NCBI GenBank assembly: GCA_051294375.1
Contig: CM119267.1
Coordinates: forward strand, 14,191,694-14,255,693
Origin: Paraspadella gotoi
Lineage: Eukaryota; Animalia; Chaetognatha
DNA length: 64,000 nt
Direction: 5' to 3'
Part shown: positions 32,544 to 56,108 of the stretch, one piece after another
How the letters are laid out: the number at the start of each line of letters is the position of its first letter
Numbering within the stretch: position 1 is the stretch's first letter
Translations under genes and position numbers: made by a program
The notes under the pieces: generated by a model
What the model saw: only the letters and a program-made list of their open reading frames with translations
What the model was told of the DNA's origin: nothing
The model's database searches: none

Positions 32544-35500
32544 ATGGCCAGTGGTGACTTCAAATACTTGGAACTAGAAACGTTCTTTTTGAACGGGGGA
32601 GACGCCAAAAATTGTCAGGGTGTTGACGATTTCCTCTTAAAGGGTCTCTTTTTGGAATATCTCGAATCGATTGAGTTCAATTCTTTGGAGGAATGGACCC
32701 TCGTTAATCGTCTCGGAGTGGGCGTCGCTGCTCTCCAACTCTTTATCCAATGCAACCTCGTCGGTCCAATCCCTGTCGCCGGTGAAGAGCGACACTCCAG
32801 AATTGTCGGGGTCGCTAAGCGAACCCGTCACGGCCCCGATGTGCGACTAGATCGTGACGGAGAAATCGCTCACCCACTCGTTAATGCTCCATGGTTACTC
32901 CTGCTCGCGGACGATGCCCTCTCTTTCGACGACCCAGCATTGCCGAGCTTGCTGTGGTGGCGATTTCGCCTCGCGTGGATTCATCAGCGGGTCCTCGAAG
33001 AACCTGTGGCGTCACTTCGCGACGCCATACTTGAGGACCTGCTACCTTCGCTGCTCCAGTCGAAGCTGTATCAACACTTGACTGCGCCGCACCGCGCCCT
33101 CCTGCACCTTGAAGCTTATCACGCTTATCTTTATTACTGGCGAAGTCGCGAAGCCGCGCATCAACTCCAGTCCGCGATCGAACTTTCTGGCGTCGATGTG
33201 CGAGTCTTTGGCGCTCTGGGAAAGAGAACCAAATACCAAAAGGAAGACAAATGTCAAATGGTCGTCTCTGTCAAGACAGAATCGAACCTCACGAACTCGG
33301 AAGGCGATTGGTTTGAAGGACATACCTGGTGGCATGAAGACGCTCTCTCTGACATCGCCCTCGACGACGACACGCTGCTTGACAAGGTGGCTTTTCGGGC
33401 CTCGGAGGACGTTAGCGGAGACTCTCTGGGTCCGCTGGAGCAAGCCGTACTCTTTTGCGTTATGATGGATGTCGGGCACCGTGGCGCCTCGTACGAGTTA
33501 ACCGAGGAGGAACTTGCAGCGTTTCGTTCGACGCTCTTGTCGCAAGATCGAAAAATTTACGCGGTACAGCTTGGATGCCTTTTCCACCGCAGCCGTGGGG
33601 AACATAAAAAGTCTCGTAAGGTGGAAAGAGCACTTTCGCAGATGGAGAATCTTGTCAATGAATTAAAACGTCCTGACCTTACATCCGCGGGACACCGTAT
33701 CTTTTTGGCACACGCCCTCGACCTACCCTTCGTGTGGACGATGGAGAATTTGATGGCGGAGATCATGACGTCTTTAGGATTGACGCGGGCGGCCCTTGAC
33801 GTTCTTCTGCGTCTCGAGGCGTGGCCGGAGGTCGTCGAATGCTATCAAAAATTGGGGAAGAGAGGAGTGGCGGAAAAAATTATTCGTGAGAGGCTCGAGT
33901 TTACAAATGACCCAAACATGATCTGCGTCTTAGGTAGGATTCGTAATTTTATATATTGAGTTAATAATTATGATTAAAATATTTTTTTAACATTAAGGCG
34001 ATGTTACCCTGGACGCCTCTCACTATGAAAAGGCGTGGGAGGTTTCTAACGGCAGTTGCGCTCGTGCCATGAGATCTCTCGGCTACGATCACCTCTTTAA
34101 GCACCGGGAGGCGGAGGCCGCTTCTTGCTTTGAGAAAAGTCTCCAGGTCAACTATCTGCAAATTCCCGTCTGGTATTCTCTGGGTTGCGCCTCTCTTTTT
34201 ATCGGGGATAACAAACGCGCGGAAAAAGCTTTTCTTCGATGCGTTCATCTCGATTATGACAACTACGAGGCCTGGACTAATTTGGCTTCCGCGCAAATCA
34301 AACTCGGCTTAAAGGTATTCTTATTACATTTGTCCTTTGTCCTTTTATACAATTTAAACATTATTTGAAATATTATAGCACTTCATAGATAGCATCGTAG
34401 GAAACGGATTGATCATGTAGCTGTCATTCCTGGAGTTGAATACGTTCTGGATTCTTATGGGAAAATGAAAGAGCTGTGGCGAATCCTAAATTTGCTTCCC
34501 GTATAGCTTGGTGAAACTCAGCTCGTCCCATTGGCTTGGACAGCTAATTACTCATTCACCAACCGTGAGTTCCGGGTTCAATCTCTTCACGGTCACGCTG
34601 GTTAAAGTGTGATAGTGTCAGCATAAACACGCCAGTGATATGGGGTGGTCACCGCAGGTCCAAAGCCCTGAGCGCTAGCTGTCGGGGGATGCTTCACACC
34701 CAAGGCATCACAATGTCATAAAGAAAGGCTTAATACATTGTTTAGTAAAATAGAATATTTTGAAAAAAAAATTTAATAATAAAAAATGAAAACAAATATT
34801 TTATCCAATAAATTCAGCGTAATTAAGATCATTATTGTCACGGTCCTAATTTCTCTTTTCCGAAAAAAAAATTTATTTTTTATCTTCTTCTTTATTTTAC
34901 CATGAGCCTCCAAAACGTATTCAATTCCCGGATCGCATATGTTGCTTGTCTCGCTTGTCTCGTTTGGCTTTTCCGCCTTTTCTTCTCTCTCGACCAATCA
35001 GAGAGGTGGCTTCCTTTACGGAATCGACAGGAGAGAGATGAGAGAAGAAACGGGGCAGTCTTCAACTTACCCTCAAGAAACTAACATCAAAAGTTCCCAA
35101 GTTCATGAACTATTTAGTTTTTATTTTTAATCATCGTTTTAATCATCATAATCTCAATTATTTTTATCTCGTTTATTTGTATAAATAAAACTCTTCTAAA
35201 TTAATCGTAATAAACCACGCCTACTTCCTTCTTTGGTAGGGAAGCCAGGTACTCTGGGAGTGAATAAACGAGACCGTGAGAGAGTCTTGATTGAAAGCTT
35301 GCAGAGACCTGCTATGTTATTAAATCTTGTTATTAAAGCCTGTCTAAAGTGTCTAAAGTTCGGGGCAATATAGCTTATTTATTAAATGAATAGATAATAT
35401 TATATTGGTTATATTTCCTATCATAGTTTATTTTATTTTATTTATGCACTGACCTGTTGTCGCCCTCATCGATTTAATTCATAGGAAAAAGCCTGCGCTA

Positions 35501-37047
35501 CACTTCAAGAAGCATTAAAGTGCAACTACGAAAATTGGAGGATATGGGAGAATTTTCTTGTCGTCAGTGCCGATGTAGGACACCCCGAAGACATAATTAG
35601 GTACATAATTTGTTTACGATTATGTTGCAATTTCTGTAATCTCTTATTCAAACAAATCAGCATTTTGATTTAACGCAGATCTTATCATCGGCTTCTGGAC
35701 CTCAAAGACGAAAAGTATGCTGACGGAGAAGTTCTTTCGATATTAGTGACGTTAGTGGTGGACCTCCACACATCCTTAAACAATGAGGTTTGCATGCTTT
35801 AATGGCGTCATACCGCCGTACCGTTAATATCATTCTTTTTATAGTCGTAATCGCTTGCGCTTGTGACGATTTTGTGACGATTGTCCCCATAAATGTCGTC
35901 GTCGGCGGCCTTCCAAATTATAGATCGCCTTTTCTAATATTATTTGTATTTGTCTTAAGCTGAAAATTTAGATATATATTCTCATCATCGAGATCCGTTT
36001 AAACAGTTGACATTTTATAAATAAAATATTTTTTTTATATTCAAATTAGATTATAGTATATGAAAAAATATTTTTTTCTTTTTCTCAGTTGCTGTCTCTT
36101 CTAACTGTCCAAAAACGAGTTGAGCTCTGCAGCGGCTGAGCTATAAGTTACAAGTCTCTTTCTCTCTCTGTTTTTATTAAACTCGTGATAAGCATTGCAT
36201 TTTTATGTTTTTATCTCTCACACATTTATTCATTCAATTTCTTAAATTTAATTAAAACAATTAATTAATTCATTTCTTACTTATAAATTTATTCACACAA
36301 TGAAGTTTATTTAACTCAACTCTTTCATTAATTTAAATTAAATAAAATTAAATTTAATTCAATTCATTTTATTTTATTCATTCATTTCATTTATATATAT
36401 TTATTTATTTATATTCAATATTCATATATTTATTTATTTTTTATATATGTAGATATTAAGCCAAGTTTGTTATGTACAAATATGATTTTTTGTTTGAGTA
36501 TCAAAGTTTGTCATGGGTCTAGTATTTTTTAAGGATTGCGACGATCCTTATGCTTTTAAGATTTTTTTTTCACTAGGATACCGAAGCTGTCGCGTCCTGG
36601 GAAAGGCTTTACAAAAAAAGCCGTGAGCTTTTTGGCCGTGTGACGGCATCTCTCTCCGACGACGCAGAAATTTGGAAAGCGTACAGCTTACTTATTCTCC
36701 GCTCCCATGAGAGCCCCGACCAAACACAAATTGGTCTTCAACATCTCCAGCGTAGCCTTAGATGTCTCACCCAAAAATCAGGATGGGAAAACGAGATCCC
36801 GTCCTGCGAGAAGGTCCTGACTGAGTGTAACCGTCTAGTTGATATTTTCCTATCTTTGGAACACTCGATCACGTCGCAGCAACTCTCCTCGCTTAAGATG
36901 ACATTAAGAACGACGGTCGCGAAACTTATGAAAAAGTATGGCGAAGTTTTGCCCTCCTCCAAAACTGAGCAAGAGTGCGATAAGATGAAGGAAATGTTGT
37001 CGGTTATTGACGAAAAAGTCAAATTAAAAAAATTGAACAATACTTGA
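32544..37047 (+). CDS. TTC27: Tetratricopeptide repeat protein 27; 5 exons
   Basis: Exons 32544-33933, 33998-34314, 35485-35600, 35679-35787, 36577-37047 are phase-consistent. Family motifs [64 protein letters not shown]. Confidence 0.9.
34475..34712 (+). mobile_element. tRNA-promoter-bearing TG...CA element, homologous to 56391-56620
   Basis: TGTGGCG...CATCACA ends, B-box-like GGTTCAATCTC, shared body TAAA(G)TGTGA..GTG.C.G.ATAAACA.GCCAGTGA...GG.GGTCAC.G..GGTCC..AGCCC; target duplication not evident. Confidence 0.6.
35836..36570 (+). mobile_element. Helentron-associated non-autonomous element (HINE/DINE-like), copy 1
   Basis: 5' palindrome, (GTC)n, core TTCCAAATTATAGATCGCCTTTT, 3' end GATTGCGACGATCCTTATGCTTTTAAGATTTTT; shared with 44109-44270 and 56279-57328. 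Confidence 0.7.
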
Positions 37048-37105
37048 TCTGCTGTGATATTTACGTATTACGTAATAGTTTGTTGAAATTTTTGTTTTTT
37101 AAGAT

Positions 37106-38780
37106 ATGATTGATATGCTTTCGGCATTAGTAAAATTGCGATCACTGACAAAGGCAAACGTCAATAATTGGATAAGAGCTTTCGTAACAAACACGAATGA
37201 CTTGGAATATGACGATCTTTTACAGCGTTACGAAGAAGCGCTGTGTTTAAATAAAGAATTGAGAACAAAATTGGCTGGTATATCTGTAAATGTTAGAATT
37301 CCAACTGGTGTCGTATTGAATTTTTTTCGGATTTTCGAATAATAGTTTTCAATTTATTTAACTTCTTCCTCGGTCATCAGTTGGAATTCTAACTGCAACT
37401 CTCGATCATAGAGACTAGTAAAGCTAATCGGCCTTTTGTTTTTAAAAAAAGTGAAAAAAATGACCGGAAAAATATTAAAGTAAGTCACTTCAGTCTTCTC
37501 ACCTTTCTCTTAACCTTCAGTATTTTTAGACTTTACGTATAAATTTTTCTCCTCAGTGCGACACTTACTGTGACCTATTTCGCCACGTGGCCCTTCACGT
37601 CGCTTATCTCGGTTGGGACTGGGATGGCGTCAACGTTCAATCCTCGTCTTCTTCCACCATTGAAGCCGCCCTTCTCGACGCCCTTGAAAAATCCGGTCTT
37701 CGCGGACCGTCTCGCGATTTTCGTCGATGCGGACGAACTGACAAAGGTGTCAGTTCTTCCGGTCAAGTCTTTTCATTGTGGTTAAGAACACGAGCGGACT
37801 GCGGGATTGGCGTATGGCGGTTCCGCGACGGCAACCCCGTCGAGAGCATGGAAGGGAACGAAGCTGAGGATTTTCCGTTTCCGCTCCTGCTCAACCGATT
37901 TCTCCCGCGCGACGTTCGTGTGCTCGCTTGGTCGCCGGCCCCATGGTATTTCCACGCAGGAAAAAGCTGCGTCGCAAGAACCTATGATTACTTCTTTCCG
38001 GAGAACGGGTTGGACCAGGACGCACTTCGTGAAGTCGCCGAGAAACTGACGGGAATTCACGATTTTAGAAACTTCTGCGAACCAGATGTACCTCGTTTGG
38101 TCAAAAGAGAAACGGGAAAGGAAGCGAACCAGTGGACATTTTTTAAAAGGAACTTGTTCCAGGTGGATTTTGCGCAGGCATCGTTGCCTTCCCTTCGTCA
38201 GTCGCCGTTCAGTCTTAGACTCTGTCGACTACGCTTTGTTGGATCGAGTTTTTTACGCCACCAGATCCGGCGACTCGTCGCAATTATCTTTTTAGTTGCC
38301 TCCAAACGTGAAGCGCCCACCATTGTCGACGAGTTATTGGATGTAGACTCGACTCCTGCTGCCCCGGTATACCGCCAGGTCAAAGGGTTTCCTCTCGACT
38401 TGTACGAATGTCGATATGACGGCGACTTCGAGTGGCGTTGGGAAGAAGAAAATTTGCTTGAGCTCGTTCGTCATTACCAGTCTCGTTATGTAGAACTAGC
38501 GACGACGGCGTCCATTTACGCTCAGATTTTAGATTCAGTCGTGTCTCGCCTCGATTTTAACGAAAAACCGGCCAAGGTAATGAAGCGGCCTGATGCGTAT
38601 CGGTTGATGCTGGAGGTTACTCAGAAAAAATTATTCGTGGCGAAAAATGAGCCGTGGATGTTTTTGGTAGAAAAAGACTTAAAACAACTTCTGGATCCAC
38701 ATGAGCCTTTAAAGAAACGAAAGCTTCGTCCACCGATGGAGAAAAGGGTCTCGGCGCATATGCTTAAAAATAAAACCTGA
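37106..38780 (+). CDS. PUS3: tRNA pseudouridine synthase, TruA family (PUS3/Deg1-like); 3 exons
   Basis: Exons 37106-37277, 37412-37479, 37557-38780. RPFVF...RHVALHVAYLGW, catalytic RCGRTDKGVS, LNRFLPRDVRVLAW, GIHDFRNFC, GSSFLRHQIR. Confidence 0.8.
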
Positions 38781-38875
38781 TTTTTTTTCTCTCTTTTTCT
38801 ATGCTTTATTCGCTGTTTATATATCTTTCGAAATTACTAGATTTGTAAAAAAAAAGTTTAAAATAAGAACCAAAT

Positions 38876-41800
38876 ATGGATGATTTGGAGGGAGACCTAT
38901 TCGGCGTTTTCGAGGCCGGAGCCTCCTCGACCGAGAAGGGCAAAGGACCCTCGGGTGGGAAACCCGCTCTTCTCAAGTCGGCCAAAAAGAAAACTCTCGC
39001 CGAGCGCTTAGCGGGAAATAAACGGCTCTCTGTCGGGGAGAGCGGCGATGCGTCGAAAAAGGCAAAGATAGATGGCGTCGACGTCGATGGAATCGGAGAA
39101 ACCGCGACGTCTGAACCGGAAGGGACAAAGGAGGATGGCAGCCTTCCGAAGAATGCCAACGCCGCATTGGACGAAGTGTCCTTGGCCGAAGATTTGCCGC
39201 GTATTCAAGTTCACAAGGTGCAAACTTTGGAAGCCTGCACACACGAGGGTAATAAGAGTATTGAAGATCCCATTTTTTAAAATATTCTATAAATATGTAT
39301 AAAATTGTATATGTATTCATTCTATATTTCTACAGTCGCGATGCCACCCGGAGCGGAATATCATGGTTTAAAGTCGGGAACCACGGAACCCGCGAAACAG
39401 TATCGTTTCGAGCTCGATCCCTTTCAAAAAGAATCCGTTTTGTGTTTGGAAAACAACCAGTCGGTAGGTCGCATAATGATTCACATTTTTCGGTATTGTT
39501 TCTTTATTAAATTTTTTTTTCCTAGGTCCTTGTCTCTGCCCACACTTCGGCAGGAAAAACCGTAGTAGCCGAGTACGCCATCGCCATGTGTCTTAGAGAC
39601 AAACAGCGGGTCATCTACACTTCCCCCATTAAAGCACTGAGCAATCAGAAATTTCGCGAACTCACGGAGGAGTTCACCGACGTGGGCTTGATGACCGGAG
39701 ACGTGACCATCAACCCCACGGCGTCCTGTTTAGTCATGACCACAGAGATTCTTCGCAGTATGCTGTATCGTGGTTCTGAGGTGACTCGCGAAGTCGCCTG
39801 GGTCATCTTTGACGAGATCCACTACATGCGCGACAAAGAACGAGGAGTTGTGTGGGAAGAAACCCTAATCTTGTTGCCAGACAACGTTCACTACGTTTTT
39901 CTTTCTGGTAATTATAATTTGTCTATATTTGATGTTGCCTTATATGAAGTTGTATTCTAATTTTTTATTATTTATAGCAACGATTCCCAACGCTCGTCAG
40001 TTTGCAGAGTGGATAGCATTTCTCAAGAAGCAGCCCTGTCATGTTGTGTACACCGAATATCGTCCGACTCCTCTGCAGCACTACGTTTTTCCTGCAGGTT
40101 TATTTTGATAAAAAGAAATATTAAAAAATAGTAATCAATTAATCATCCATAAATCTATATTTCAATAGGAGGCGATGGGCTGTTTCTCGTTGTTGACGAG
40201 CAAAACAATTTTAAAGAGGACAATTTTAACACTGCGATGTCAGTTTTGAAAACGGCTGGCGACGCAGCTAAAGGAGACTCGGGCAACGTTGGAAGGAAAG
40301 GCGGCACTAAAGGAGAGTCCAACTGCTATAAAATCGTCAAGATGATCATGGAAAAGCAGATGCAACCAGTCATTGTGTTCAGCTTCAGTCGTAAAGAGTG
40401 TGAGGCTTACGGCATGCAAATGTCCAAACTCGATTTTAATTCGGATCAAGAGAAAACCATGATCGAGGAGGTCTTTAACAACGCGATGGACCAGCTTAGC
40501 GAGGCGGACAAGAATTTACCGCAGGTACATAACTTTTTTGTAGTTTGGTAAAAGAAGATTTTTCTCTCTCCTTGCGCCAATGGTTTCGAGATGATTGGTT
40601 GCTTCTTCCAGGTCCTCAACATTTTGCCCTTGTTAAAACGCGGAATCGGAATTCATCACTCCGGTCTTTTACCTATTCTCAAGGAAACCATTGAGATCTT
40701 GTTTGGCGAGGGATGTATCAAAGCGCTCTTTGCCACCGAAACTTTCGCTATGGGCCTCAACATGCCCGCCAGGACTGTGCTTTTCACTTCTGCTCGGAAG
40801 TTCGACGGAAAGGATCACAGGTACGTGCTGTCATAGCTGCTAGCTTCGTCTTTAAAAGATATAACTAAATTTTACCAAATTGAACCAAAATATCACAATT
40901 TTATAGGTGGTTGTCGTCCGGTGAATTTATTCAAATGAGTGGACGAGCCGGGAGGCGAGGCATAGATTCTCGCGGGCTCGTAATTTTGATGGTGGATGAG
41001 AAAATGTCACCAGGTATCTAAAATAAAATAAGTATAATATCGTTTTTTTAGGCTCCTTTTAAAAAAGTTTTCATGCTAGGTGCTTGCAAGGATATGGTCC
41101 GCGGCCAGCCTAATAAACTAGATTCTGCTTTTCATCTGACTTACAACATGGTTTTGAATCTTTTGCGGGTAGAAGAAATCAATCCCGAATTCATGCTGGA
41201 ACGTTCCTTCTTTCAGGTTTGTTTTCAATTTTCTATAGCTTTGGTTTCTTAAGTTATTTTAATTCAATTAATAATTTTCGTAGTTTCAAAATTATGCTGC
41301 TATTCCTGGAATGGTCGACAATGTTAAACAATTGGAAGAGGAATACAAAACTTTACAGTTCCCACAACAAGATTCAGTAGGTAAGAACTTCTTCAAAAAC
41401 CTTGTCATAATGAAATACTTTTTAGTACTGTTTTTTATTTAAATTGATAGCGGATAAGTATTGTCGTCTTTTTACAGGTTCTTATCACCGCTTGCGTTCT
41501 CAATTAGAGCAATTTAGACAAGAAATGCTTAATTATATTCGTCGACCGCATTATATTCTTCCGTTTTTGCAGCCCGGAAGATGCATTAAGGTAATATCTT
41601 TAATAAGATTGAACCCGAATACATAATCTATTAGGTTTATAAATTCTATCCATTAGTCTTATATATTCAAATTTCAAACTGTGAATTTTTTTTTAAATAG
41701 TGTCTCACGTAAACTTTAAAATGCTTATAATTCGCAGAAAGATTGTGTACTATAACTATAAATTTACTAGTGATCAACCATAAGAATTACGATGCTTGTT

Positions 41801-44740
41801 ATGCATATATTTCATAATTGCGTATTCACGTGATCATCTAGAAAGTCTTTTATGTAAAACGAAGTCAACCCTGCGCATTACATTAAACTTCCCCGTTTTT
41901 GTTCTTTCTTTCAAAGGATTTTTTTTTGGAAACTTGCTAGTTTCTTTTTCACTTCAGTTCTTGAATCCTGATTTTTCCTTGTAAAGCTTTTTGCTACTAG
42001 TTTCTAAGCCGGATAAAGACGGAACGATGACTGTGACGACTAAAACGACGACTGGGACGTCGACGACGACGACGACTGCTCCTTGAATTCGCATTTCACG
42101 CGAGTCACGTTCAGTAAAGTAATCCCCATGACTTTTCGTTGAACCCTGGTGACAGATCGTCATGAAATTGAATAGGCGAAAGGCGAAGAATTTATGGCTT
42201 TATGTCTCAGGCGAAGCAAATAGAAGTTAAGCCTGCAATAACCAAGTGAAAGGAATTTATAACTATCACTGTCTTTCAATCATAGTTCTTCTCTCTTTTT
42301 CCTTCCCCTTCTCTCGCCTTCCATACTTATTCTACTGCCAATTTTTTTCGATCACAGATATCTAATAAGTAATGTATTATTTGTAAATTTTAGGTTCAAA
42401 ACGGAGATGATAATTTCGGCTGGGGCGTCGTTATTAATTTCCAAAAAAAGGCTGATAACAAAAAACAACAAGAGGATCCTCTAAATTCTGAACCTGTTTA
42501 TATTGTTGATACGCTACTCAATTTGTCGAAAGGTATGTATCGGTAGTTAATTTCGTTAAATATATATTTTATTAAGAACGATTTTTTATTTAGTTTCAAT
42601 ACCAATTAAGTTTATTTATTAAACGGGCATGTTTCGGCTACAATGATAGCGCTGATTAAGGCTATTGTAATTTGTAGCCGAAATATTTCAGTTTTTTAAA
42701 TGAGCTGAATCGCTGTTGAAACTAAATGATTTTAATAAATTGCACAAAACACAGCAAAACGAAAGCAACAAATATACAATGTTAAATATATACTATCAGA
42801 CTTAATGACGATCGTCACTTGCTATTTTTTATTCTAGAATCTGCCTCTCTTCGTGACCCTACCTTCATTAAACCATGCCCTGCTGGGGAAAAGGGTGAGA
42901 TGTGCGTTATCCCCGTACTACTCGACATCGTCAAGGCTATATCCTCGGTGCGCCTATACTTTCCCAAGGACCTTAAACCTTTGGACAACCGGCAGAGCGT
43001 CGGACGGTCGTTGCAAGAAGTGCAGAAGCGATTCCCCGACGGACTCCCGCTTCTTGACCCTCTGGAGGACATGGGGATCAAGGAGGAAGGACTCAAAGTA
43101 GGGGGGAATTTTTAACTGTTCTTGGGAGACAGAATTGTGAGGATAAGTTTTTTATTGTTATTAATATAACCATCTATTAAACGTGAAATGCAATTAAAAT
43201 TAAAATCGGTAAATAAATGACATTAAACCAAGCCTGAAAGAAAAAAAATAGCGAAAAAGCTAGACAAAAAAAAAAGTTCGTTTATTACTGAATTCCATCA
43301 ATTCAGGAGGTGATACGACGCATCGACGCTTTCGAAAACCGAATGTTTAGTCACCCTCTTCATGAAGATCCTGGAAAAGGCGACCTTCTGATAAAATATG
43401 TAAAACAGGTATTTAGGCGAGGAACGAAGATTGGTAGAGGATATCTCGAGTATCTTCGAGTTACGTTAGCTTGGAATTCACTAAAGTTTTTTTTCCGTCA
43501 CTAACCAAATTTTTACTGTGACGAATGACCTCTTGTTCGATCACAACGTAAAATTGTCTCCGTTGAAGAATAAAAAACTTTTTTCTTAATAAAAATATAT
43601 TTAAAAAATAAGTATTCGTCTTTTTCTACGCACTTAATGAAAAATTGTTTTTCAGTTATCGGTGTCGGAGAAAATACGATCAGAAAAGTCGGCGTTGAAG
43701 AAGGCGAGATCGCTTTTGCAGATGGACGAACTTAAATGCAGAAAGCGTGTTTTGAGAAGACTAGGATTCGCTACGAGCGCCGACGTCATCGAAATTAAGG
43801 TGACGTTTGAAAATATAAACATATATACATATTAAATATTTGTTTAAAAATATAAAATATAATACATCAGGGTCGCGTGGCTTGCGAAATAAGCTCTGGT
43901 GACGAATTGGTCATCACTGAATTACTCTTTAACGGAATCTTCAACGATCTCTCACCGGAACACGCCGCAGCTTTGCTTTCCTGTTTCGTCTTTGAGGAAC
44001 GTGCACAAGAAATGCCGAAACTTGGCGAAGAGTTGTCCGGTTCGTACAAAATGCTAAGTTATTAGCCAAATCCTATGACCTTAACTATGTATATATTTGG
44101 AGCAAAACTTTTTATCGGCGCAATCGCTTAGCGTTTGCGACGACATTTGTGACATAAGTGGCGTCGTCGTCGGCGTTCCAAATTATAGATCGCCTTTTTT
44201 ATGATGAGTGTATGAAGCTGAAAATTTATATACGATTGCGACGATCCTTATGCTTTTAAGATTTTTTTTTAAATCTTAGGTTTCGTTAATATCATCAGGT
44301 TTAAAATAAATACGTATTTTGACTCTCTCTCTCAGGCGCTTTAAGAGTCATGCAGGATACCGCTCGAAGGATCGCGAAAGTTTCGAAAGAAGCCAAATTG
44401 GAAATCGACGAGGAAACTTATGTTGAAAAGTTTAAACCTCACATGATGGACGTCGTTCACGCATGGGCCACAGGAAAATCCTTCGCCGAAATTTGCCAAA
44501 TGACCGATATCTTTGAAGGATCGATAATCAGGACCATGAGACGTTTAGAGGTAAATGCAAAATGAATTAAAAATAGCCTTAATTTATTTATTAGCTATTT
44601 GCTAATCTTTTAAGGAGTTACTTCGTCAAATGTGCCAAGCCGCGAAGGCAATCGGAAACACAGAACTGGAAAACAAATTTGCTGAATCCATCATGAAAAT
44701 AAAGAGAGACATTGTATTTGCCGCCAGTCTTTATTTGTGA
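38876..44740 (+). CDS. MTREX: Exosome RNA helicase MTR4 (SKIV2L2); about 17 exons
   Basis: [85 protein letters not shown], arch/KOW exons, C-terminus IVFAASLYL* (TGA 44738-44740). Confidence 0.96.
44109..44270 (+). mobile_element. HINE/DINE-like element, copy 2 (internally deleted, both ends kept)
   Basis: TTTTTATCGGCGCAATCGCTTAGCGTTTGCGACGA...GATTGCGACGATCCTTATGCTTTTAAGATTTTT, in an MTREX intron. Confidence 0.72.
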
Positions 44741-44823
44741 TGATTGTTAGCCTGTTAGTTCTTATAGGCTTTGTTGTTTCTTTTCCAGATGATCCATGAC
44801 ATTTATTTAAGTTGGATACCATC

Positions 44824-47800
44824 ATGAAGCAAACATTCCCAAAACTTATTTCCTATAAGACTGTGATAGCAGCGTCTGTGATCTTCTCTTTCGTCCTCTT
44901 ATGCTACTGGTCTTGGTTCACGTTTTTCGCCTGGCTGGCTCTTCATGTAGGAGTCGGCTTCTTAGCCGTATTTCACGGCGCAGGTCTCATGCTCTGCCGA
45001 GGAAATTTCTACAAGCCTCCCGTTCACCCAGCGTGGATCCAATCCGTCTTTGGAAAGTACGTTCTCAAATGGGCCGAGAGCCTCCCGCACTCAACAAGAT
45101 TTGGACAGAGTTCGTCCCTGCCGCAACGCCGCTGGCCCGCTATGCCCGATGCTGCGCCGCGGGGTTCGGTCGACTCTGGCGCTCCTGCACGCGTAGTTGT
45201 GTCCCGCAACGTGGATGTTGTTTTGTCGGAATTCTTCGAACTTTTGTCTCGCGACTTCCTCCTAAGTTGGCTGAGCGACTTGTCTCACGACCCTCACTAC
45301 CTCGTCTCAGCCGCCCAGCGCCTCTACTGGGATGCCGCCTCGAATTTGAGCGAGCGCTTGGCTGCCATCGATGCCGTCCGACTGATTTCGACCGACTTGA
45401 TGAATTTACTTAACCAGCATTTCGTCGACATTCGACGGGCGAGTCGCTGCGGCGACGGAAATGTACGAAAGAAAACTACACCGTTTAAACTAAAGCCTTA
45501 CCTAGAGTCGCCGTCACACGAGATTGACTTTCTCCGAAAAGTCTGCGATTGCGTGCTTCACATACTGTTACCCGAGGACGAAAGAGAAGACGAAATTCTC
45601 CGTGGTTTATTGAAAGAAATTCTTGCCTTCGACCTTATTTACCCGACTGTAAACTCTGTCTGCGACCCCGATTACATTAACCAGTTCTTTCTCAATTGGG
45701 TAGAGTACCGAGAGAGTGTGGCCACGGCTCAGAAACGCACGTACGCTTACGCCAAAAACTACGAAGAGTTTATCCGCATGATCAATGAGAGCGACGACGT
45801 GGAGCAACTTAAGCAGATACGATACCAGGTTATGACAGAGATCATGCAGGCAGCCACAATCAAGAGGCTCAAGAGCATCGAGAAGCAATCGGGGGACAAA
45901 ATGCCTCGAGAAAGGCAGGAAGAACCCACCGGTAGACAGACCAAAGGAGAGCTGCTCAAGTCGAGAAACCTCAAACGCTACATCAACCAGTGTACCATAG
46001 CCAAGTCGGTCGCCGAGAAACGGTTGCGTGTCATTGGCGGTCAGGATTACGCGAGATACGGTGCCGAGGAAGAAAAGTCGGACGAGATCCTCAGCATTCC
46101 TGGAAAAAAAGTTTTGTCCTTTGGCGTAATTATGGAGTCATCCGGCGCCAGGGCGGCTTTCGGAAAGTATCTATTGAGAGAAGAGGTCGCGTCGCTGCTT
46201 TGGTTCTGGGAAGGAGTCGAGTTTCGAATGAAAGAGATTACTGAACTGCCCAGCAACGAGTCTGTCGCGGAAATGCATCACCTGGCAACCGAACTTTATC
46301 AACGCTATATCAACGCCGTACAGAATGTCGTGAAGCTCAACAAGTCAACTATTGCGGGAATGCATGCTTTTTTACTCGGCGACGCGGGTCCCGAAGCTTT
46401 TGAAACGACCAAGTCAGTAATTGGTCGGGCGTTGGAAGAAAAATTTTATCCATCCTTTCTTGTCAGTGACATCTACTACGGCTTTGTTTCCCAGCTGTCC
46501 GAAGATTTGAAGGAGAATCAAAGGCAGAGCGCAGACGAGGAAAAACTGGATAATGAGAACTCGGGATCCGCCTTTAGCCTTTTAGATTTGGAAGAAAATC
46601 AAGCTCCTGCTTTAAAGGAACATTCGACTTATGCGCAGAAGAAACTGACCGCGATTTCTGATAAAATTCTCAACAAAAGTAGTGCATTGGATGCCTTGCG
46701 TGCCGCCCATCGCCCTGTTACGGTACCGGGTTTAACCGCATCGGGGTTTAACGGAAATTCTAACTCTAAACAGCATCGCCTGATCGGCCAGCTCGAAAGA
46801 GACTTGGAAGTTCTACAAGCAGAACGACGGCAACTGGAGGCATTCATTGAAAGGACAGACAATTGGTTGGAACACGTGGGTCAGTGGCGGATCACTGTGG
46901 CCCAAAGCAGCAACATAGAGGAAGGCGGGAAGACGGTTCCCTATTTCGTACTGCTCGTTCATTTGCTCAGTCATTCCTCTTCCCTCGCGGACGGCGCCAA
47001 ATCCTCGGACACTCACGGCTTTGTCGTCACCAGAAGACTCGGCGATTTCTTGTCGCTTCACAAAAAACTCCATCCTCTCCGGCATCACGTCTCCGAGAAC
47101 TTGAAGTTGCCGTCACCCGGTATCTTTGATAAGGACACCTCGGACAAGTTCCTTTCGGGAGCCATGGCCAAATTGCAAACTTATGTGGACGTCGTTACGG
47201 CAGATCCGATCCTTTGCCAATCCGAAGCGATATATGCTTTTTGCTGCCCGACCCCTGAGTTTTTATCACGAGAAGGCGGCAAGTCGAAAAGCACTCAGAT
47301 TTCTGCGGCATTTGATGGTTTTAGCGGAGCCGAGAGTGTAGCGCGAGACGACCCGCCGGAGAAAAACACATTCGACGGGATAAAAAGGGCGTTCTCCAAA
47401 AAGACTGAGGCTGAGCAACAGATCGAGGACACTCATGAATTTCTCATTCAGGATGACAATTTGTCGTATGACAGGAAGCTAGCCGATTCCTTTGCGGAGC
47501 CAATTTATAACCTGGTGGCCGAGATTTTCGAACTTCGAGGGGTCTTTAAGATATTCCGTCAGAGCTTGATTACTTTCGTGCGGGTGACTTTCGGCAAATC
47601 AATCAACAAACAGTTACACGAATTTATCCACTGGCTCTTTTGCGATGACATGGTTGTATACTACTTGACGTTGCTCAAGGGCTCCATGTGGCTCACCGAC
47701 GGTCGATTGGCGCCGGCGCCGACACCTCGGACAGACGACGAGAAGCACGAGTGTCGCAGAAAATGCAAGCTCAAATTGGTCAAGAATATTCCTGACGCTT

Positions 47801-47952
47801 TGACGCACTTGCTTGGACAACAAACGACGCAGCAGGGAATCATCAAAATTTTTGAATCTTTTCAGGATGTGCGGTTAAATAAGCAATTGTTTTACTCAAT
47901 TTTTGAGTTGTTGGTTTTCGAAGTTTTCCCCGAATTGAAAGATATTGATTAA
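44824..47952 (+). CDS. SNX25: Sorting nexin 25 (N-terminal TMs, PXA, RGS, coiled coil, PX, PXC); intronless
   Basis: Single ORF, first ATG 44824. AYAKNYEEFIRMINESDDVEQLKQIRYQVMTEIMQAATI and RNLKRYINQCTIAKSVAEKRLRVIGG resemble SNX25; PX VTRRLGDFLSLHKKL; PXC FQDVRLNKQLFY..VFPEL. Confidence 0.9.
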   Translation: MKQTFPKLISYKTVIAASVIFSFVLLCYWSWFTFFAWLALHVGVGFLAVFHGAGLMLCRGNFYKPPVHPAWIQSVFGKYVLKWAESLPHSTRFGQSSSLPQRRWPAMPDAAPRGSVDSGAPARVVVSRNVDVVLSEFFELLSRDFLLSWLSDLSHDPHYLVSAAQRLYWDAASNLSERLAAIDAVRLISTDLMNLLNQHFVDIRRASRCGDGNVRKKTTPFKLKPYLESPSHEIDFLRKVCDCVLHILLPEDEREDEILRGLLKEILAFDLIYPTVNSVCDPDYINQFFLNWVEYRESVATAQKRTYAYAKNYEEFIRMINESDDVEQLKQIRYQVMTEIMQAATIKRLKSIEKQSGDKMPRERQEEPTGRQTKGELLKSRNLKRYINQCTIAKSVAEKRLRVIGGQDYARYGAEEEKSDEILSIPGKKVLSFGVIMESSGARAAFGKYLLREEVASLLWFWEGVEFRMKEITELPSNESVAEMHHLATELYQRYINAVQNVVKLNKSTIAGMHAFLLGDAGPEAFETTKSVIGRALEEKFYPSFLVSDIYYGFVSQLSEDLKENQRQSADEEKLDNENSGSAFSLLDLEENQAPALKEHSTYAQKKLTAISDKILNKSSALDALRAAHRPVTVPGLTASGFNGNSNSKQHRLIGQLERDLEVLQAERRQLEAFIERTDNWLEHVGQWRITVAQSSNIEEGGKTVPYFVLLVHLLSHSSSLADGAKSSDTHGFVVTRRLGDFLSLHKKLHPLRHHVSENLKLPSPGIFDKDTSDKFLSGAMAKLQTYVDVVTADPILCQSEAIYAFCCPTPEFLSREGGKSKSTQISAAFDGFSGAESVARDDPPEKNTFDGIKRAFSKKTEAEQQIEDTHEFLIQDDNLSYDRKLADSFAEPIYNLVAEIFELRGVFKIFRQSLITFVRVTFGKSINKQLHEFIHWLFCDDMVVYYLTLLKGSMWLTDGRLAPAPTPRTDDEKHECRRKCKLKLVKNIPDALTHLLGQQTTQQGIIKIFESFQDVRLNKQLFYSIFELLVFEVFPELKDID

Positions 47953-48362
47953 GTTTCTTGTGCCTTTATTTTAATAAATAGGTTTTTGGAATACTTTTGG
48001 TTTTATGCTGCATAGGAGAAAATTTAAAAATTTGAACGAAAATGTTTTGCCTATTTTCATTATCCAAGAATATCATTGTGATATGGGTGAATAACCAAAA
48101 GAGTTCGCAATTAGAATAATAGTGAAGGTTATTAGGTGGAAGTTGTAGTTTTAGATTGGTTAGATTATAATTTTAACGAAAAGCTCAACCAAATCAAATG
48201 ATATGCAAACAACCAATTCTGTTGCTGTTGTATTGTCATTTTTAAAGTACGTCAGCGTGCAATGCACTATTTTTTTTTCTCACAGGCCTTAAATTTTGCT
48301 ACTGTTACGGTTTGACCTTTGCGTTATTTATCAGGGGTAAACGGAAGATTTCTTAAAACCAA

Positions 48363-48734
48363 ATGATTGAAATACATCAAGTTGCGTTCGTCGTCAACGG
48401 GTTTCAAACAGACATATTGTATCAATTGTACTCCGACAAGCTGTTTATCACCGTGACTCAGTTGGAGAAAATAGGGACTTTAATTTTGTGCGAGACCGAC
48501 TCCGTACAGAGGGAATCCTCCAATCTCCTTGCCTCACCGGAAATCTCTACTCGACTGGTTCTTGGGGCCGACGATCCTCCGCTTTTCGTTTTCGCTCAGA
48601 GCGTCTTTAAGAAACTCCTTCCCTATCTTGCTCACAGAACGCTTTTGATATCCATCGCTTTGAAGTCAAGTGACTTAAAAGTTCTTCGTCTTTTGGAAAG
48701 AATCATCGTTGAAAATAGAATTCGTCATTCTTAG
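48363..48734 (+). CDS. PSMG3: Proteasome assembly chaperone 3
   Basis: 123 aa; YSDKLFITVTQLEKIGTLI, TRLVLGADDP, LLISIALK fit the PAC3 family. Confidence 0.82.
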   Translation: MIEIHQVAFVVNGFQTDILYQLYSDKLFITVTQLEKIGTLILCETDSVQRESSNLLASPEISTRLVLGADDPPLFVFAQSVFKKLLPYLAHRTLLISIALKSSDLKVLRLLERIIVENRIRHS

Positions 48735-48742
48735 ACGAAAAT

Positions 48743-48958
48743 ATGAAACTTCTCGTGGGATGGAGGTACGGATTGTTCATCGGAACGATTGTGGGATCGG
48801 TTGCGCTGGCCATGTACCCTATCGCAGTCCGCCCGTATTTCCAAGCGTCCGAATGGCGGGAAGTGCAGAAACAATCGAGAGAAGAAATGGGCATACCCAG
48901 GGAACAAAGACAACCAGGCGGGATGAAAGAATGGACGGATCCGTTCGAGAGGAAATAA
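48743..48958 (+). CDS. SMIM20: Small integral membrane protein 20 (MITRAC7 / phoenixin precursor homolog)
   Basis: 71 aa; TM helix, YPIAVRP, C-terminal QPGGMKEWTDPFERK resembling vertebrate QPPGLKVWSDPFGRK. Confidence 0.88.
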   Translation: MKLLVGWRYGLFIGTIVGSVALAMYPIAVRPYFQASEWREVQKQSREEMGIPREQRQPGGMKEWTDPFERK

Positions 48959-49048: not shown

Positions 49049-49837
49049 ATGCCGAGGAGTAGTTACTGCATATTTGCGTCGGTATTATTGGTTTTTATTT
49101 TTTACTCAATAAGAACTTTTTCGTCGAGAAAGCTCAAAATGGCAAATTTTCATTCTATTTACGAGTTAAAACCTATCAAGGAAGATACAGTAACCGTATC
49201 TTTTGAAGCATCGAGCGTTAAGGTTTATTTTAAGGAACTGAGACCAAAAGGAAACGAGAACGACTTTATGCACAAAATGGATGTCTTGTTGCTTCATGGG
49301 CAACGATTTTCTTCCCAAACATGGCAGGATATCAATACGCTCGCCGCTCTCGCTGAACGTGGACACCGGGCAATTGCTGTTGATTTACCTGGCTATGGAA
49401 AATCCGAAGCTGCTTTGGGAATGGGCGGTGAAGATGATGGGTCTTTTGAAAAACGCGCCTTGTTTTTACAGTCTTTGATCCATGCTTTAAACTTGAAAAA
49501 ACCAGCAATTGTATCTCCTTCTATGTCAGGAACTTTCTCTCTTCCACTTTTATTAAAGCATCCCGATACGATTGGAGCATTCATTCCAGTTGCTCCGATT
49601 CATACTGGAAAGTTTAGCAGTGAACTTTATATGAGAACCAGGATTCCTACTCTTATTGTTTATGGTGACCTTGATACTAACCTTGGATTAGTTTCATTAA
49701 AGCATTTAAAAAATTTACCATTACATGAAATTGTAGTACTTTCTAATTCCAGGCACCCAGCGTATCTTGATCAACCGAATGTTTGGCATGAAAAAATACT
49801 AGAATTTCTCGCCTCGCTTGATCGCAAAATAGATTAG
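49049..49837 (+). CDS. ABHD14: Alpha/beta hydrolase ABHD14 family (A/B not resolved), N-terminal TM
   Basis: VLLLHGQRFSSQTW, AIAVDLPGYGKS, nucleophile SPSMSG, PTLIVYGDLD, HPAYLDQP. Confidence 0.9.
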   Translation: MPRSSYCIFASVLLVFIFYSIRTFSSRKLKMANFHSIYELKPIKEDTVTVSFEASSVKVYFKELRPKGNENDFMHKMDVLLLHGQRFSSQTWQDINTLAALAERGHRAIAVDLPGYGKSEAALGMGGEDDGSFEKRALFLQSLIHALNLKKPAIVSPSMSGTFSLPLLLKHPDTIGAFIPVAPIHTGKFSSELYMRTRIPTLIVYGDLDTNLGLVSLKHLKNLPLHEIVVLSNSRHPAYLDQPNVWHEKILEFLASLDRKID

Positions 49838-49965: not shown

Positions 49966-51974
49966 ATGAATGGCAATTTTATTAACCATGCTGCAACAAA
50001 AGTGTCTGAAATCCAAAGCGTCAGAAACAGTATAGAAAGTAATTTTAATCGTTTGGATGAAAGTCTTCGCCGAAGTAGAAATGATAAAATGCTCAGCTTA
50101 ATGGTTTCTAACCTTGAAAGAGACAAAGAAAAACTACGAATTAAACAAAAAGTAGACGAAAGTTTTATAACTTGCGTAAATGAAATCGAGAAAGAAGTTG
50201 AAAGCGTTTTGAGATTTCCAGATCAGTCTTCTGAAAAAATAACTAATATTAATGATAAAATTAGGGGTTTAAATTCCAGGGAAATGAGTTCGAAAAAAAC
50301 CGTATCAAAACTGAAGATTCAGTTAATCGACCGTTATAACTTAAGTAAAGACTCTATATCGCAACATGCTACCCACAAGGAAAATGAGAATAAAATTTCG
50401 AGATCAAAATCAAAATTCAATGAAACAAAAAGTAAGCGGGTCCAGCAAGAACCAAATCATCAGTACCAACTAACAACTAAGTCTCAAGTGGTCACTACAA
50501 CACCATCGACGATATTAACTAATGATTTTATTGCTGTTCCTCTGGTTCCTCCTCTAATTTTATCACATACATGTTCAGCGGATCATTCCTCGCAAAATAA
50601 CTTGTTGGTTAAACCCCAAATAAAAACTGTTTCAAAGGGAACCGAAACTTCACCACCGAAATTACTTTCAAAATATTCTTTCCCTGTTGTCGAGATTCTG
50701 AAAGAAGAGGATATGCCTAGTGACGGTGAAGAGGAATTTTCTGAATCTCAAAATTTGACCAGGAAAGATATTTTAAATGAAAAGATTATGTCATTGATTG
50801 AAAAGGAAGTTTACCAAGAGTATACCACTCAATACAATCGTAAGAAAACCGCCTATTTGAGCGCCGAAGTTGATCATGCTGAGCCATATTTGGATGAAGT
50901 TTTTGTAAAAACTATGATTGAGGGAGTGGTCGGTCAACAGTTACGTCAAACTATAATTACATCGGACTATCGACCATTGGAAAAGGTTTCAGCATCTTTG
51001 CCTGGCACGCCAAAAACAACACCTCCGCCTTCGCCTTCTGTTCCTCCATCTAGCCAAACACCACAAATGGACTATGAGGTCATAAAAACGCCACCAAATA
51101 CCCCGCCATCTTCTCCCAGTCCAAATTATGGAACGATTATAATTAAGGAACCTGAAACCTTTGAATTATCCAAATATTTGATTAATCAAGAACCGTTAAC
51201 ATTTTTTACGCCAGATATCCCGAGCTCTCCAAAACTCTCCACTCCTGCAAATTCGCATCCGAGCTCTCCCCGGGAAAAACCCGACGAAACTTATCATCAG
51301 GCGATAAAAGAATCCGTTTCTACACCTGTTCAAACACCAAGTTCATCTCCAAAGCTAGAATGGCCGGAATTCTTAGAGCTCCCCCCTCCCAAATCAGTTT
51401 CAGCGGAAACTATTCCCAGTCCAAACCTTACATCTTACGACCGGGTTTCTGTCTGCGTTGGTCCAAGTCAATCTGATTTTAAAGCACTCGTGTCTGTTCG
51501 ACCTCAGGTATTTCAGAAAAATATTTTTGAAAATATCTTTATATGTAACTTTTGAAATCTCTGCGTCTTTTTACGAAACCTTAGATATTATGAAAATTTT
51601 AATTGCTCTGCCTTTCCAAGGTGGTTAAATCTGAATCGCCTTCGTCATCGATTTCTTCAACAATCACATCGTTTGCTCCTGAGGCATCTTCAGAGTCTAT
51701 GGGACAAATCATCTCACTCTCTGTTCAACCAATAGACATTACAATATCATCTAGTCGTCTCGGAATTGGTAAATTTACAACGTTGCGATTACAAATTGAA
51801 TCGTTTTTCGGGTTTTAAAATTTTTCTTGATTATTTTTAGATTCTCCCTGCAATAGTTGCGACCTGTCTCAACCGAGTCTGGATCTCAAAAACTCATCCA
51901 TGTCCGAAATACTTCAAACGTACGATACCAGTTACAGCGAGGGAGAAGTAAAAGCTACTGAAAAAGGAGTATAA
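49966..51974 (+). CDS. TALPID3/KIAA0586-like centriolar protein, short form; 3 exons
   Basis: Exons 49966-51507, 51621-51768, 51841-51974. EKLRIKQKVDESFITCVNEIEKEV resembles the conserved TALPID3 helix ([24 protein letters not shown], from memory); TPKTTPPPSP repeats and a terminal SEGE motif. Confidence 0.6.
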
Positions 51975-52216: not shown

Positions 52217-55200
52217 ATGGCCGAAGACTTTAAAAAAAGGGAACGCCCTAAAGGAATATTTGGAGTCGCGAAAAAACACTCCTGGTTTTCGGTCGAAGGA
52301 GACGATTGGAGTTCCGATGATTCCGATGACGACTTTCATCCTATTCGCGGGGGAGGTGCTGTCAGCGGTTCCGACTCGGAGGACGGTGGCGATCAAAAAC
52401 GTAATCCCTCCGCCAATGAAAGGTGGCGCCGACGGCGGTCATCCGGGAACAATCCAGACGAAGTGTCTAGCGACTCTAACGTTGTCTCGCGTCGTAAGCG
52501 ACAACCCGCGAAACGCCAGAGCAGCGATTCCGAATCTCCGTCGAGAGCATCTAGAAAGAGAAACGTTCCGCGCAAATCGTACGCCGAAGATAGCGACGAT
52601 AGCTCCAACGGGCGAAACACCGGTAGACCTCAGTCTGGTAAACGAGGAGGCTCTCGTCGTTCGAGCGAGTCCGAAGATTTTGAGGCGACGCTCGGCGTCG
52701 AATCTGATGATCTAGAGACCGCGACCGTCAAGAAAAAGAAAACTCGAAAGAAAAAGGTATCAGCCGTTCGAGCGAAAAAGGTGGATTTAACCTCGGACGA
52801 CGATGACGATTTTGACGGCGACGACAGCGATGAGTATCGGCCAACGAAAAAAATCAAACGAGCAAAACGGGTCAAGAGCCGATCGAACGCCCCAAATGCG
52901 CGCGTGCCAAAAAAACTTCGACCCGACGTAAAGACGAAACGACGAAAAAGGAGCACGCCCAAAGACGCCGCCTCTCCTTTAGTTTTTGAAGTGACTAGGT
53001 CGAACGAGAAATCTGAGGGCGACGATAACTCGGCGTTGCCACGGGATAAATTGATGCAGGGTTGGAAATGGGCTCATCGTTTACCTCTCCACGTTTTGGT
53101 CAACATCTTTCAGATGGTCGTTGACGCAGAAGGAGCCATTCCTTTCTTGCTACATGCCGAACAGGTACAACTAGAGCGAGTCTATTGTGTACTGAATATG
53201 AATAATCTTCTTTGTCGATAGATTAGCCCCGTTTGGGACTCAGCGGCTCAAACCGATTCACTTTGGCGTAAAGTGGATCTCACCGGAGGTTGGGCGAACT
53301 TAGATATTAAGAAGTTTACTAAACTATGCAGGTCGTGGGAGTTTTAATTCAGAAACGACTAATGTAATTTCTAATAAAAGGTCTATACCCCAGAAACCAA
53401 TTTGGATCGCTTGAAGAACTCGTTCTTCCTTCTTCCTTGTTCGTCAACGACGCCGTTGCTGCGTTGGCCGCTCATTGCTCATCGACGCTCGAGTCTCTAT
53501 CTCTTCCGGGTTGCCGGAAGCTCAAGGAGACTGTGGCCGTCAAACATATTCCAACCTCGTTTCCCCGCCTCAGAGCGGTCGACCTTTCCGACCTCAATCA
53601 GCCGCGGGGTCTTAAGACGATAGTGCAGGGCTTCGGAGAACGCCTGGTCTCCCTCAATATTTCCAGGAACGTCATTCCAAGTTTTCCCGGTCTATTTCAG
53701 GTCATTTGGTGAGAAAATTCGCTTCTTGAGTTTTGGCTTTAGGACAATTTAATCATTTGTTTTTTCCCCTCAGGCCGTCGTTGCTCATAGCCCTTCTTTA
53801 GAGGTTTTGGATATTTCCAACATACACGGCGGCAGCGTTCTTTCCCTAAAAATTTCTAACTTTCAGAAAAGTTGTCCGAAAATGAGAACGCTGAGAATGG
53901 CCGGGTGGATATTAAATTCTACCGATACTCGAGGTTAATAGTACATATTACGTAATTTATGTAAAGTTAAATCAATTGTTGCTTTTTAAATTTAACTGAA
54001 AATCTGTCATTAACAGAGGAAATAGCCTGTATGCGCGGATTCAGTCGTCTAGAAGACTTATCGTTAGCTCAGGCGAATTCTTCGTCAGTCTTGGCCGCCC
54101 ACCGTCTGAACGCTTCAGACAACAACGTTCTCCGCCTTTTGCTCGCCGCCTCTGATGACCTTCGCGTCCTCGACATTCGAGGTGTTCGTGGGCTCACCGC
54201 TTCCGGTTTGGACGTTTCTCTCCTTGGGCCACCCATAAATTCCTTCATTACTAAAGCCCCGCAGTTACGGCATCTCTTTTGGTCTGGCGTCAGCAAGACC
54301 GACATCTCCAAAGCTTGTCCGCTAGGTGAGCCTACAGAAAATTTTAAATAGATATATTCATTATATAGAATATAGATGCTTAAAAGAAACGGCTTGAGTC
54401 GGTTATTAATTAGTGTTACGTAAGTTGCGGTGGTTTAAGGTGGTTAATGTTAGGATAGTTAATTATTTTTACTAGGTTTTTTCTGTGTAATAAATTTTTT
54501 ATAATTTGTCACTCATAAGAAGCGAAAATCCTAGTCGGTGAATGTATAATTAATTTTTTTCTTATGTAAGCTAAATATGACTTTTAAAAAATTTTAATAA
54601 TTTGAGTTTTTTATACTCTACAATGTTTGCTCTATTTGAATAGTACCTTATATGCTGCAAAAATCGCCATTTCCGACAAAGAAGATGAAAATATACAAAA
54701 AAATTGTTATCAACATCGAATTCTACAGACTTGATTACCTTATTCGTTTTGTTATTTTTAAATGCCCTAATTTACATTTAATATAAAAAGAAAAAGAAGC
54801 ATAATCAATTAGTGAAACAGGTTTTTTTGTTTTTTAAAGTTTAATCTCATTTCCATCGAAACTTGATTTCCAGCTTAATCACGTACATTCCTACCCACAT
54901 ACAGAATTGGCGTGCAAATAGTGAAATATATTTTTTTTCCATTTAAACTCATTTCCAGTCTTTTTTTTGTCAGTATCAAACTCGTAATATTAAGCATCGC
55001 AGTCGCGCATGTTATCATTTTGTCATATTTCGTTTTTCTCTTTCCTTCATACTCTCTCTTCTTCTATAGTTTTTTATTTATACTTATAATATATATTTAT
55101 TTATATATTAAGCCAAGTTAGGTATAAATCTTAGTTTTCCTATATCTAATTTGATTTTTTTAGTATCAAAGTTTGTCATTGGTCCATATTTTTAGTCAGA

Positions 55201-56108
55201 TCTGCTTATTAGCAGATCCAGACTCTATAATTCACTTTGTCGGTCCGCAGCCTCAATATTGTCGGGCATTCACTTATATAATGTCAGAACATCGAATTAT
55301 GATAAATTATGTCCCTCCGTCCGTCAGTCCAATAGCAAAAAACACTAATTACTCGTGATTGGATGGATGGATTGGAATGAAATTTTGTGTGGAATCGTGG
55401 AAATGAGTTTAAATAGAAAAATAGAAATAAAAAAACCTGTTTCACTAATTGATTGATTGATCTTTTTCTTTTTATATTAAATGTAAATGCAAGATGTATT
55501 AATTAATCAAATTGTAATAAAAAGTCAATTAATTAATCAATAATTAATTAATCAGTCAATTATTCAATAAAAAACATTACGCATCTAAAATTAATCATTA
55601 AATAATTTGATTAATCGTGGACATTGTTTGCTCAAACTTGTTTTTATGTGATTGTGATTGCTTGATTTTTTAACTTGAAATTAAAGCGAAATATAAAATC
55701 TTAAATAGAATACTTCAGTTTAACTAAGATAAACTTGTAAAAAAATTTTTAACACTTTAAAACTTAATTTTTTTAGGAAGCGACATGGATTTCCGTCAAC
55801 TTCTCACGTCGCTTCGTGACACTCTCTCGACCCTTGACTTAAGTCAAAACGTTTACCCACCCTCTCATCTCAATGCATTTTGCTCAGCTTTCGAGCGAGG
55901 CTACCTTGAAGGAGACGCGGGCCCGCCTCTGGCCGACCTCAACCTCAGCAGTACTAACGTGGAAGAGGATCACGTCAGGCGTCTACTCACCGCCTGCCCC
56001 GCGCTCGTAACTCTCAATCTGGCAGGATGTCGGGCTTTGCCCAGAGAGATGAAAAAACTTTTTGACGGACAGAATTTGGCGGCCTTAAAAAAAGACTTGA
56101 GTCGATAA
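52217..56108 (+). CDS. FBXL6: F-box/LRR-repeat protein 6-like with long charged N-terminal region; 6 exons
   Basis: Exons 52217-53164, 53222-53331, 53394-53700, 53774-53933, 54017-54325, 55777-56108. F-box WAHRLPLHVLVNIFQMVVDAEGAIPFL...LWRKVDL; LRRs ending LNLAGCRALPREMK. Confidence 0.8.

Follow-up and report, generated by a model that had tools for sequence, protein, structure and literature searches.

The cluster and its genes

The window analysed here, a 64-kb stretch of animal DNA (30–50% GC, CpG-rich), carries on its + strand, between positions 32544 and 56108, a head-to-tail cluster of nine genes (Table 1) that probably forms an operon resolved by spliced-leader (SL) trans-splicing. For each of the nine genes the exon model gives a translation uninterrupted by stop codons. 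The spacers from stop codon to ATG measure, in gene order, 58, 95, 83, 410, 8, 90, 128 and 242 bp, exactly the lengths given in an earlier note made from the sequence, and are shorter than 250 bp in seven of eight cases. The flanks are wider: on one side the ATG of a divergent alpha-tubulin gene is 903 bp away, and on the other 2126 bp separate the cluster from a Girdin-like gene. Five split genes together hold 29 introns, every one of them GT-AG. The earlier note had set the small spacers against introns that reach kilobases; this holds for two introns, which exceed 1 kb, but most are short (median 83, range 57–1451 nt), and most spacers are thus intron-sized rather than far below intron size.

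Judged by sequence matches, the names PUS3, MTREX, SNX25, PSMG3 and ABHD14 are well supported, TTC27 and SMIM20 moderately so, and FBXL6 weakly. (The small DUF4538 protein is presumably SMIM20.) For the eighth gene neither a Pfam family nor atlas support was found for the proposed identity with TALPID3, and we keep the neutral name gene 8. Of note, some exons are very long: SNX25 and ABHD14 lack introns, and the Girdin-like gene starts with a 2.6-kb exon (58235–60814).

Table 1. Genes and candidate RNA-processing signals of the cluster
Feature	Position	Strand	Remarks
Candidate shared promoter region and outron (putative)	31697..32507	.	between tubulin contig start 31696 and TTC27 contig start 32508
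Unpaired AG acceptor, non-genomic leader joined to first gene	32508..32509	+	25-letter loose end of one contig
TTC27-like TPR protein	32544..37047	+	800 aa, 5 exons; TPR matches; atlas lead 0.87; 4/4 introns as contig joints
Candidate trans-splice acceptor of PUS3	37102..37103	+	2 nt 5' of ATG; shuffle p 0.39
PUS3, tRNA pseudouridine(38/39) synthase	37106..38780	+	487 aa, 3 exons; Pfam, PDB E 4e-57; 2/2 introns as contig joints
Candidate acceptor of MTREX	38839..38840	+	shuffle p 0.64
MTREX/MTR4 RNA helicase	38876..44740	+	1058 aa, 17 exons; PDB E 3e-72
Candidate acceptor of SNX25	44787..44788	+	shuffle p 0.12; contig starts directly behind
SNX25	44824..47952	+	1042 aa, intronless; PXA, RGS, PX, Nexin_C; matches named sorting nexin-25
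Top-scoring acceptor-like AG of the cluster	48284..48285	+	77 nt 5' of PSMG3 ATG, within 410-bp gap; p 0.003
PSMG3 (proteasome assembly chaperone 3)	48363..48734	+	123 aa; Pfam PAC3
SMIM20-like small protein	48743..48958	+	71 aa; DUF4538, PF15061 E 2.5e-17
ABHD14 alpha/beta hydrolase	49049..49837	+	262 aa, intronless; candidate acceptor AG 49044-5
Gene 8 (TALPID3-like in the earlier note)	49966..51974	+	607 aa, 3 exons; 2/2 introns as contig joints; candidate acceptor AG 49948-9
F-box/LRR protein (FBXL6-like)	52217..56108	+	721 aa, 6 exons, sequence-only model; weak F-box-like/LRR matches; candidate acceptor AG 52210-1

RNA contigs, leader and spacer signals

RNA evidence came from the assembled contigs of one study, public run X1, whose RNA nature was guessed and judged from splice joints. 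The run holds 99% of the sampled words, and 14 of its 15 displayed joints are GT..AG introns (41 further joints are not displayed), which argues that it behaves as RNA. For MTREX, 6 of 16 introns are among the displayed joints and the other 10 agree with the depth bookkeeping. Contig depth lay within 1 unit of the exon model in 17 of 30 bins; 13 bins had extra contigs, with the biggest excesses at repeats. Two small repeat families were seen, one at 34522–34586 and 56437–56501 and the other at 35888–35991, 44109–44270 and 56279–56690; over both, contig depth is in the thousands. The first looks tRNA-like by eye, yet ARAGORN and Rfam give no match.

Two records of this run cross the gene boundaries. 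Record 1 (7255 nt) covers TTC27, PUS3 and MTREX, and its unbroken pieces 36575–37276 and 37557–39247 span the spacers on either side of PUS3. Record 2, of 6267 nt, runs from SNX25 to gene 8, is unbroken from 44789 to 51050, and spans four spacers, including the 410-bp gap, which it retains unspliced. Spliced contigs thus bridge six of the eight spacers, each with well over 31 letters on either side, which is what a check for transcripts across the spacers, proposed in the earlier note, had been meant to reveal. Its suggestion that the cluster might be two units split at the 410-bp gap gains no support, because one contig crosses that gap. Because the same contigs skip introns, genomic DNA was ruled out as the source of the bridging. 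Contig cover is missing at 44738–44788 (MTREX-SNX25) and beyond about 52138 (before FBXL6), these ends being taken from record lengths and depth bookkeeping, and over most of 31733–32446; at the MTREX-SNX25 and gene 8-FBXL6 spacers the gap in cover counts as no evidence either way. At 49045 and 49949 there were no extra contigs and depth was flat. (Note that contigs drop rare branches.) Of two other runs, X2 had only 9 short matches and X3 only 2; one X3 record is colinear with SNX25, which is too little to use.

SL trans-splicing is typically recognized by a 5' segment of non-genomic sequence, attached at an unpaired AG behind a pyrimidine tract. Record 1 aligns from the AG at 32508–9 and bears at its 5' end 25 extra letters, TCTATATGCTTTGATTATTTTATTA. 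No joint from these letters to an upstream exon was found within 30900–32508, and they are absent from both strands of the whole window with up to 3 mismatches allowed. They are probably a spliced leader, one that would derive from a separate SL RNA. The Rfam scan and the leader search returned no SL RNA gene within the 64-kb window, Rfam matches and tRNAs in the window both numbered zero, and a chaetognath SL motif was not found there. Nor were the letters found in the searchable literature text or readable supplements; the leaders of the chaetognath Paraspadella gotoi appear in a figure. Note that the 25-letter leader holds an ATG followed by one codon and a stop, and hence would place a two-codon upstream open reading frame (ORF) on every message that bears it.

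The contig of the divergent tubulin gene, on the opposite strand, begins at 31696 on genomic sequence, without the leader. (This gene, at 28710–31696 on the − strand, has many short introns, and its contig is leaderless despite an acceptor-like AG shortly 5' of the ATG.) Record 2 aligns from 44789, which is record position 6; the five unaligned letters that precede it, which are not displayed, may be another leader or noise. Thus the search for a non-genomic leader at unpaired AGs succeeded at the first gene, and at the six internal AGs listed in the earlier note unaligned letters were seen only for SNX25.

Acceptors and donors in the spacers were scored with a matrix built from the cluster's own 29 introns, and each spacer was compared with its own shuffles. 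The AGs that the earlier note had named as unpaired and U-rich (37103, 38840, 44788/44811, 49045, 49949 and 52211) are all present and, 44811 excepted, score inside the range of true acceptors. The best AG of a spacer beat the shuffles (p<0.05) in only two of eight cases, at 48285 (p 0.003) and 48734 (p 0.037), the remaining six giving p 0.065–0.66; the contrast is weak because the spacers are T-rich throughout. (The candidate ABHD14 acceptor at 49044–5 gave p 0.66.) As an argument from sequence alone, the acceptors are weak evidence, compatible with the operon idea. The spacers had also been said to lack an obvious donor. In six of eight we found none at least equal to the weakest of the 29 true donors, whereas the 410-bp gap holds donor-like sites within the true range and the 242-bp gap marginal ones. 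Of the two AGs that beat their shuffles, the second belongs to the stop codon of PSMG3, a TAG that lies 8 nt before the ATG of SMIM20 and scores as a good acceptor. AATAAA and ATTAAA are absent from four of the six longer spacers checked, and the next ATTAAA beyond PSMG3 sits at 49014, 3' of SMIM20.

Lineage of the host

Trees were built for ABHD14 from 51 of 120 listed matches and for SNX25 from 28 and 17 of 82, chosen for taxonomic spread and with no chaetognath or nematode sequence among them. SNX25 falls with protostomes, with Shimodaira–Hasegawa-like approximate likelihood ratio test (SH-aLRT) values of 84 under a mixture model and 92 without the mixture. Approximately unbiased (AU) tests, run on this single gene under the simpler LG+G4 model, reject a tunicate placement (p 7e-5, grouping with Clavelina), Ambulacraria (0.006), molluscs (0.03) and a position as sister to other bilaterians (0.006). 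Three deep protostome placements are not rejected, and the tree sets SNX25 weakly beside Priapulus. A Xenoturbella-like or other xenacoelomorph-like host was discarded, both SNX25 placements expected of it having been rejected by the AU tests; the accessible text of the Xenoturbella genome paper (PMC11521371) never uses the word 'operon'.

The closest named relatives are distant: SNX25 reaches 37% to Patella, Girdin reaches 49% to a hemichordate, and the best named matches of ABHD14 are amphibians. ABHD14 sits in a clade with support of 100/100; its 11 companions there, which come from Logan, JGI and ENA, all lack names. An alignment scan of metagenomes gave no close ABHD14 relative among the 80 loci returned, the best full-length identity being 43%, and hence showed neither an operon nor a leader of a relative. 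The unnamed clade has a second deep branch (P0004, P0008–P0011); this is a further family of the group or else a lineage-specific duplicate. Moreover, an ABHD14 relative seems to be split near residue 144, suggestive of intron loss or gain inside this group. Gene 8 had 2 matches in 1.84 billion representatives, of which the sole real relative is P0336/P0338 and the other is low-complexity. For P0336 (product of the first exon of gene 8) and P0203 (an ABHD14 relative's last-exon product), the longest ENA contig listed measures 3490 nt in both cases. These equal lengths hint that ABHD14 and gene 8 may lie side by side in a relative whose ABHD14 is about 57% identical.

The observed/expected ratio of CpG is 0.99–1.47 across the nine coding sequences (the FBXL6 value coming from an uncorrected model), i.e. 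there is no CpG depletion, which agrees with the reported absence of gene-body methylation in P. gotoi (PMC12460157). Because the matches listed point to a diverse group without named proteins, SNX25 is placed deep among the protostomes, a leader is present and there is no sign of gene-body methylation, a chaetognath is the best fit, and we consider it likely that the host is one. We hold it unlikely that the host belongs to another deep protostome lineage, one with no leader or operon on record. (Among the matches listed, there was no paper on leaders or operons in kinorhynchs, priapulids, gastrotrichs or gnathostomulids.) Such a host would imply independent leader splicing, nine-gene operons, a new leader, and a stop-codon acceptor junction that forces a choice between two messages; this independent origin of trans-splicing and operons would bear on how often both arose in animals.

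A probable operon, its alternatives and known systems

Since the genes lie head to tail, spliced contigs run over six of eight spacers and the contig of the first gene carries a non-genomic leader at an unpaired AG, we favour, with good confidence, a eukaryotic operon of one to three units that is resolved by SL trans-splicing in a probable chaetognath. The earlier note had arrived at an SL-resolved operon from the sequence, and the two RNA predictions of that proposal that could be tested, a leader and read-through, came out as expected.

Several observations pull the other way. The contigs stem from a single run and study, and a contig across two genes cannot prove a single molecule. The leader letters were read on one gene, not two, and the five SNX25 letters stop short of the AG, unlike the TTC27 leader, which speaks against a simple one-leader reading. 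The acceptor signal of the spacers is weak by itself, the best AG being no better than shuffles in six of eight. As to the host, ABHD14 leans weakly to chordates (86/93), the best Girdin matches are deuterostomes, and no tree includes a chaetognath reference sequence. Finally, in six leader similarity tests (p values uncorrected; the chaetognath set consisting of 4 of 26 listed sequences, one per form), the leader resembled none of the four Spadella and Flaccisagitta forms (p 0.15–0.67) and showed a mild likeness to an acoel leader (18/27 ungapped, p 0.003 before correction for the 6 comparisons). Its likeness to the Ciona 16-mer was not significant (p 0.09).

In the operon that we favour, transcription would start upstream of 32509, in a region probably shared with the divergent tubulin gene. 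Introns leave by ordinary cis-splicing, as the contig joints show, and at the AG at 32508–9 the leader, presumably supplied by a separate SL RNA, replaces the 5' end, as seen in one contig. The transcript continues through the spacers, at least at the level of contigs. By analogy with chaetognath and nematode operons, each downstream gene would then receive a leader at the U-rich AG of its spacer, and with it a capped 5' end, and the upstream message would be cut and polyadenylated close to that AG. The 8-nt PSMG3-SMIM20 gap leaves no room for a 3' untranslated region (UTR). A precursor of these two genes would therefore give rise to one of two messages: PSMG3 with SMIM20 included in its 3' part, or SMIM20 capped by a leader that is joined at the AG within the stop codon of PSMG3.

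Dicistronic loci of Drosophila are the model for a different account of the same contigs, in which there is one transcript with a leader on its first gene only, and some downstream genes are left on mature di- or polycistronic mRNAs, where re-initiation or internal entry allows their translation. That the contigs retain spacers yet lose every intron is what such mRNAs would look like; leader letters were read at none of the internal AGs, the 8-nt gap fits re-initiation, and the lack of AATAAA and ATTAAA in four of the six longer spacers checked also points in this direction. However, assemblers fuse overlapping messages and lose short side branches, so that the bridging can be explained without mature polycistrons, and re-initiation is inefficient after ORFs of 500–1000 codons. 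Moreover, a contig starts exactly behind the internal AG at 44787–8 and carries unaligned letters. We regard mature polycistronic mRNAs as improbable.

Messages that overlap in their UTRs could also be merged into contigs if the genome were simply compact, with separate promoters lying in the upstream genes and the first gene trans-spliced independently. In P. gotoi trans-splicing outside operons is common (10,197 trans-spliced genes as against 18% of genes in operons; PMC12460157), and most of the spacer AGs are no better than shuffles. This account would, however, hide up to eight promoters in coding exons or in AT-rich gaps of 8–240 bp, for nine genes on the same strand, while other gaps of the window measure 0.9–2.1 kb; furthermore, in Spadella the poly(A) site and the acceptor lie 3 nt apart, which was taken to exclude re-initiation of transcription (PMC2481426). 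It is, in our judgement, very unlikely. Least probable, and barely credible, is that the cluster is merely tightly packed and the 25 letters reflect a cis exon far upstream, a difference between alleles, or an artefact of assembly or library. They do come from one contig of one run, with no SL RNA gene in the window and no match in print, but they join exactly at a pyrimidine-tract AG and are unlike the genomic letters that they replace, the 32 kb upstream carry other genes and no copy of them, and the adjoining tubulin contig starts cleanly on genomic sequence.

An operon resolved by a spliced leader would place the cluster beside published systems. In P. gotoi nearly half of the genes are reported to be trans-spliced and 18% to lie in operons, these being defined by gaps of <250 bp; three leaders are in use, and the largest operon holds nine genes (PMC12460157); in Spadella cephaloptera, leaders were described together with a first operon, of ribosomal protein S14 and PCNA, in which three bases separate the poly(A) site from the acceptor (PMC2481426). 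Judged by the accessible parts of these two papers, the present cluster resembles chaetognath operons in its co-oriented housekeeping-type genes, its spacers mostly <250 bp, its leader on at least one gene, a size of up to nine genes and the presence of proteasome/ubiquitin functions among the members. Unlike the longest P. gotoi operon, which includes ribosomal protein genes, it has none (PMC12460157). A search of that paper's readable supplements, which did not include the operon table, did not turn up the names of the cluster's genes, and the cluster may already be listed in that table.

Likenesses extend to other animals. As far as the accessible text goes, the polycistronic layout of unrelated housekeeping genes is shared with Caenorhabditis operons, and the PSMG3-SMIM20 junction, here predicted from sequence, resembles the gap-less SL1-type operons of that genus, which have no intercistronic region (PMC9258526, PMC2776167). 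Compared by eye, the leader is not the same as the Caenorhabditis SL1 or SL2 printed in PMC7986045. Tunicate operons (Ciona, Oikopleura) likewise have short gaps, and the tunicate leader serves first and downstream genes (PMC7986045); the host itself differs from tunicates, given the rejected SNX25 placement (p 7e-5). With the SL trans-splicing of the acoel Symsagittifera roscoffensis there is the mild leader likeness only, and the accessible text of PMC9911081 makes no mention of operons.

SL-resolved chaetognath operons have been published, so that, if the host is a chaetognath, the arrangement is a known one. In that case the cluster would serve as a detailed example of an arrow-worm operon as large as any known, together with a leader not found in searchable text and a stop codon that may act as a trans-splice acceptor. 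That RNA assemblies fuse genes of the cluster is also a warning for annotators.

Two further features of the window lie outside the cluster. At 27740–28338 (+), a short protein with a cysteine-rich tail is encoded convergently with the tubulin gene; its CYSTM match (E 1e-4) is below the cut-off. At 9756–11279 (+) lies an intronless ORF of 507 aa with weak Condensation and PapA_C matches; AMOP and VWD exons follow closely downstream on this strand, and the ORF may sit within an intron of a SUSD2-like gene.

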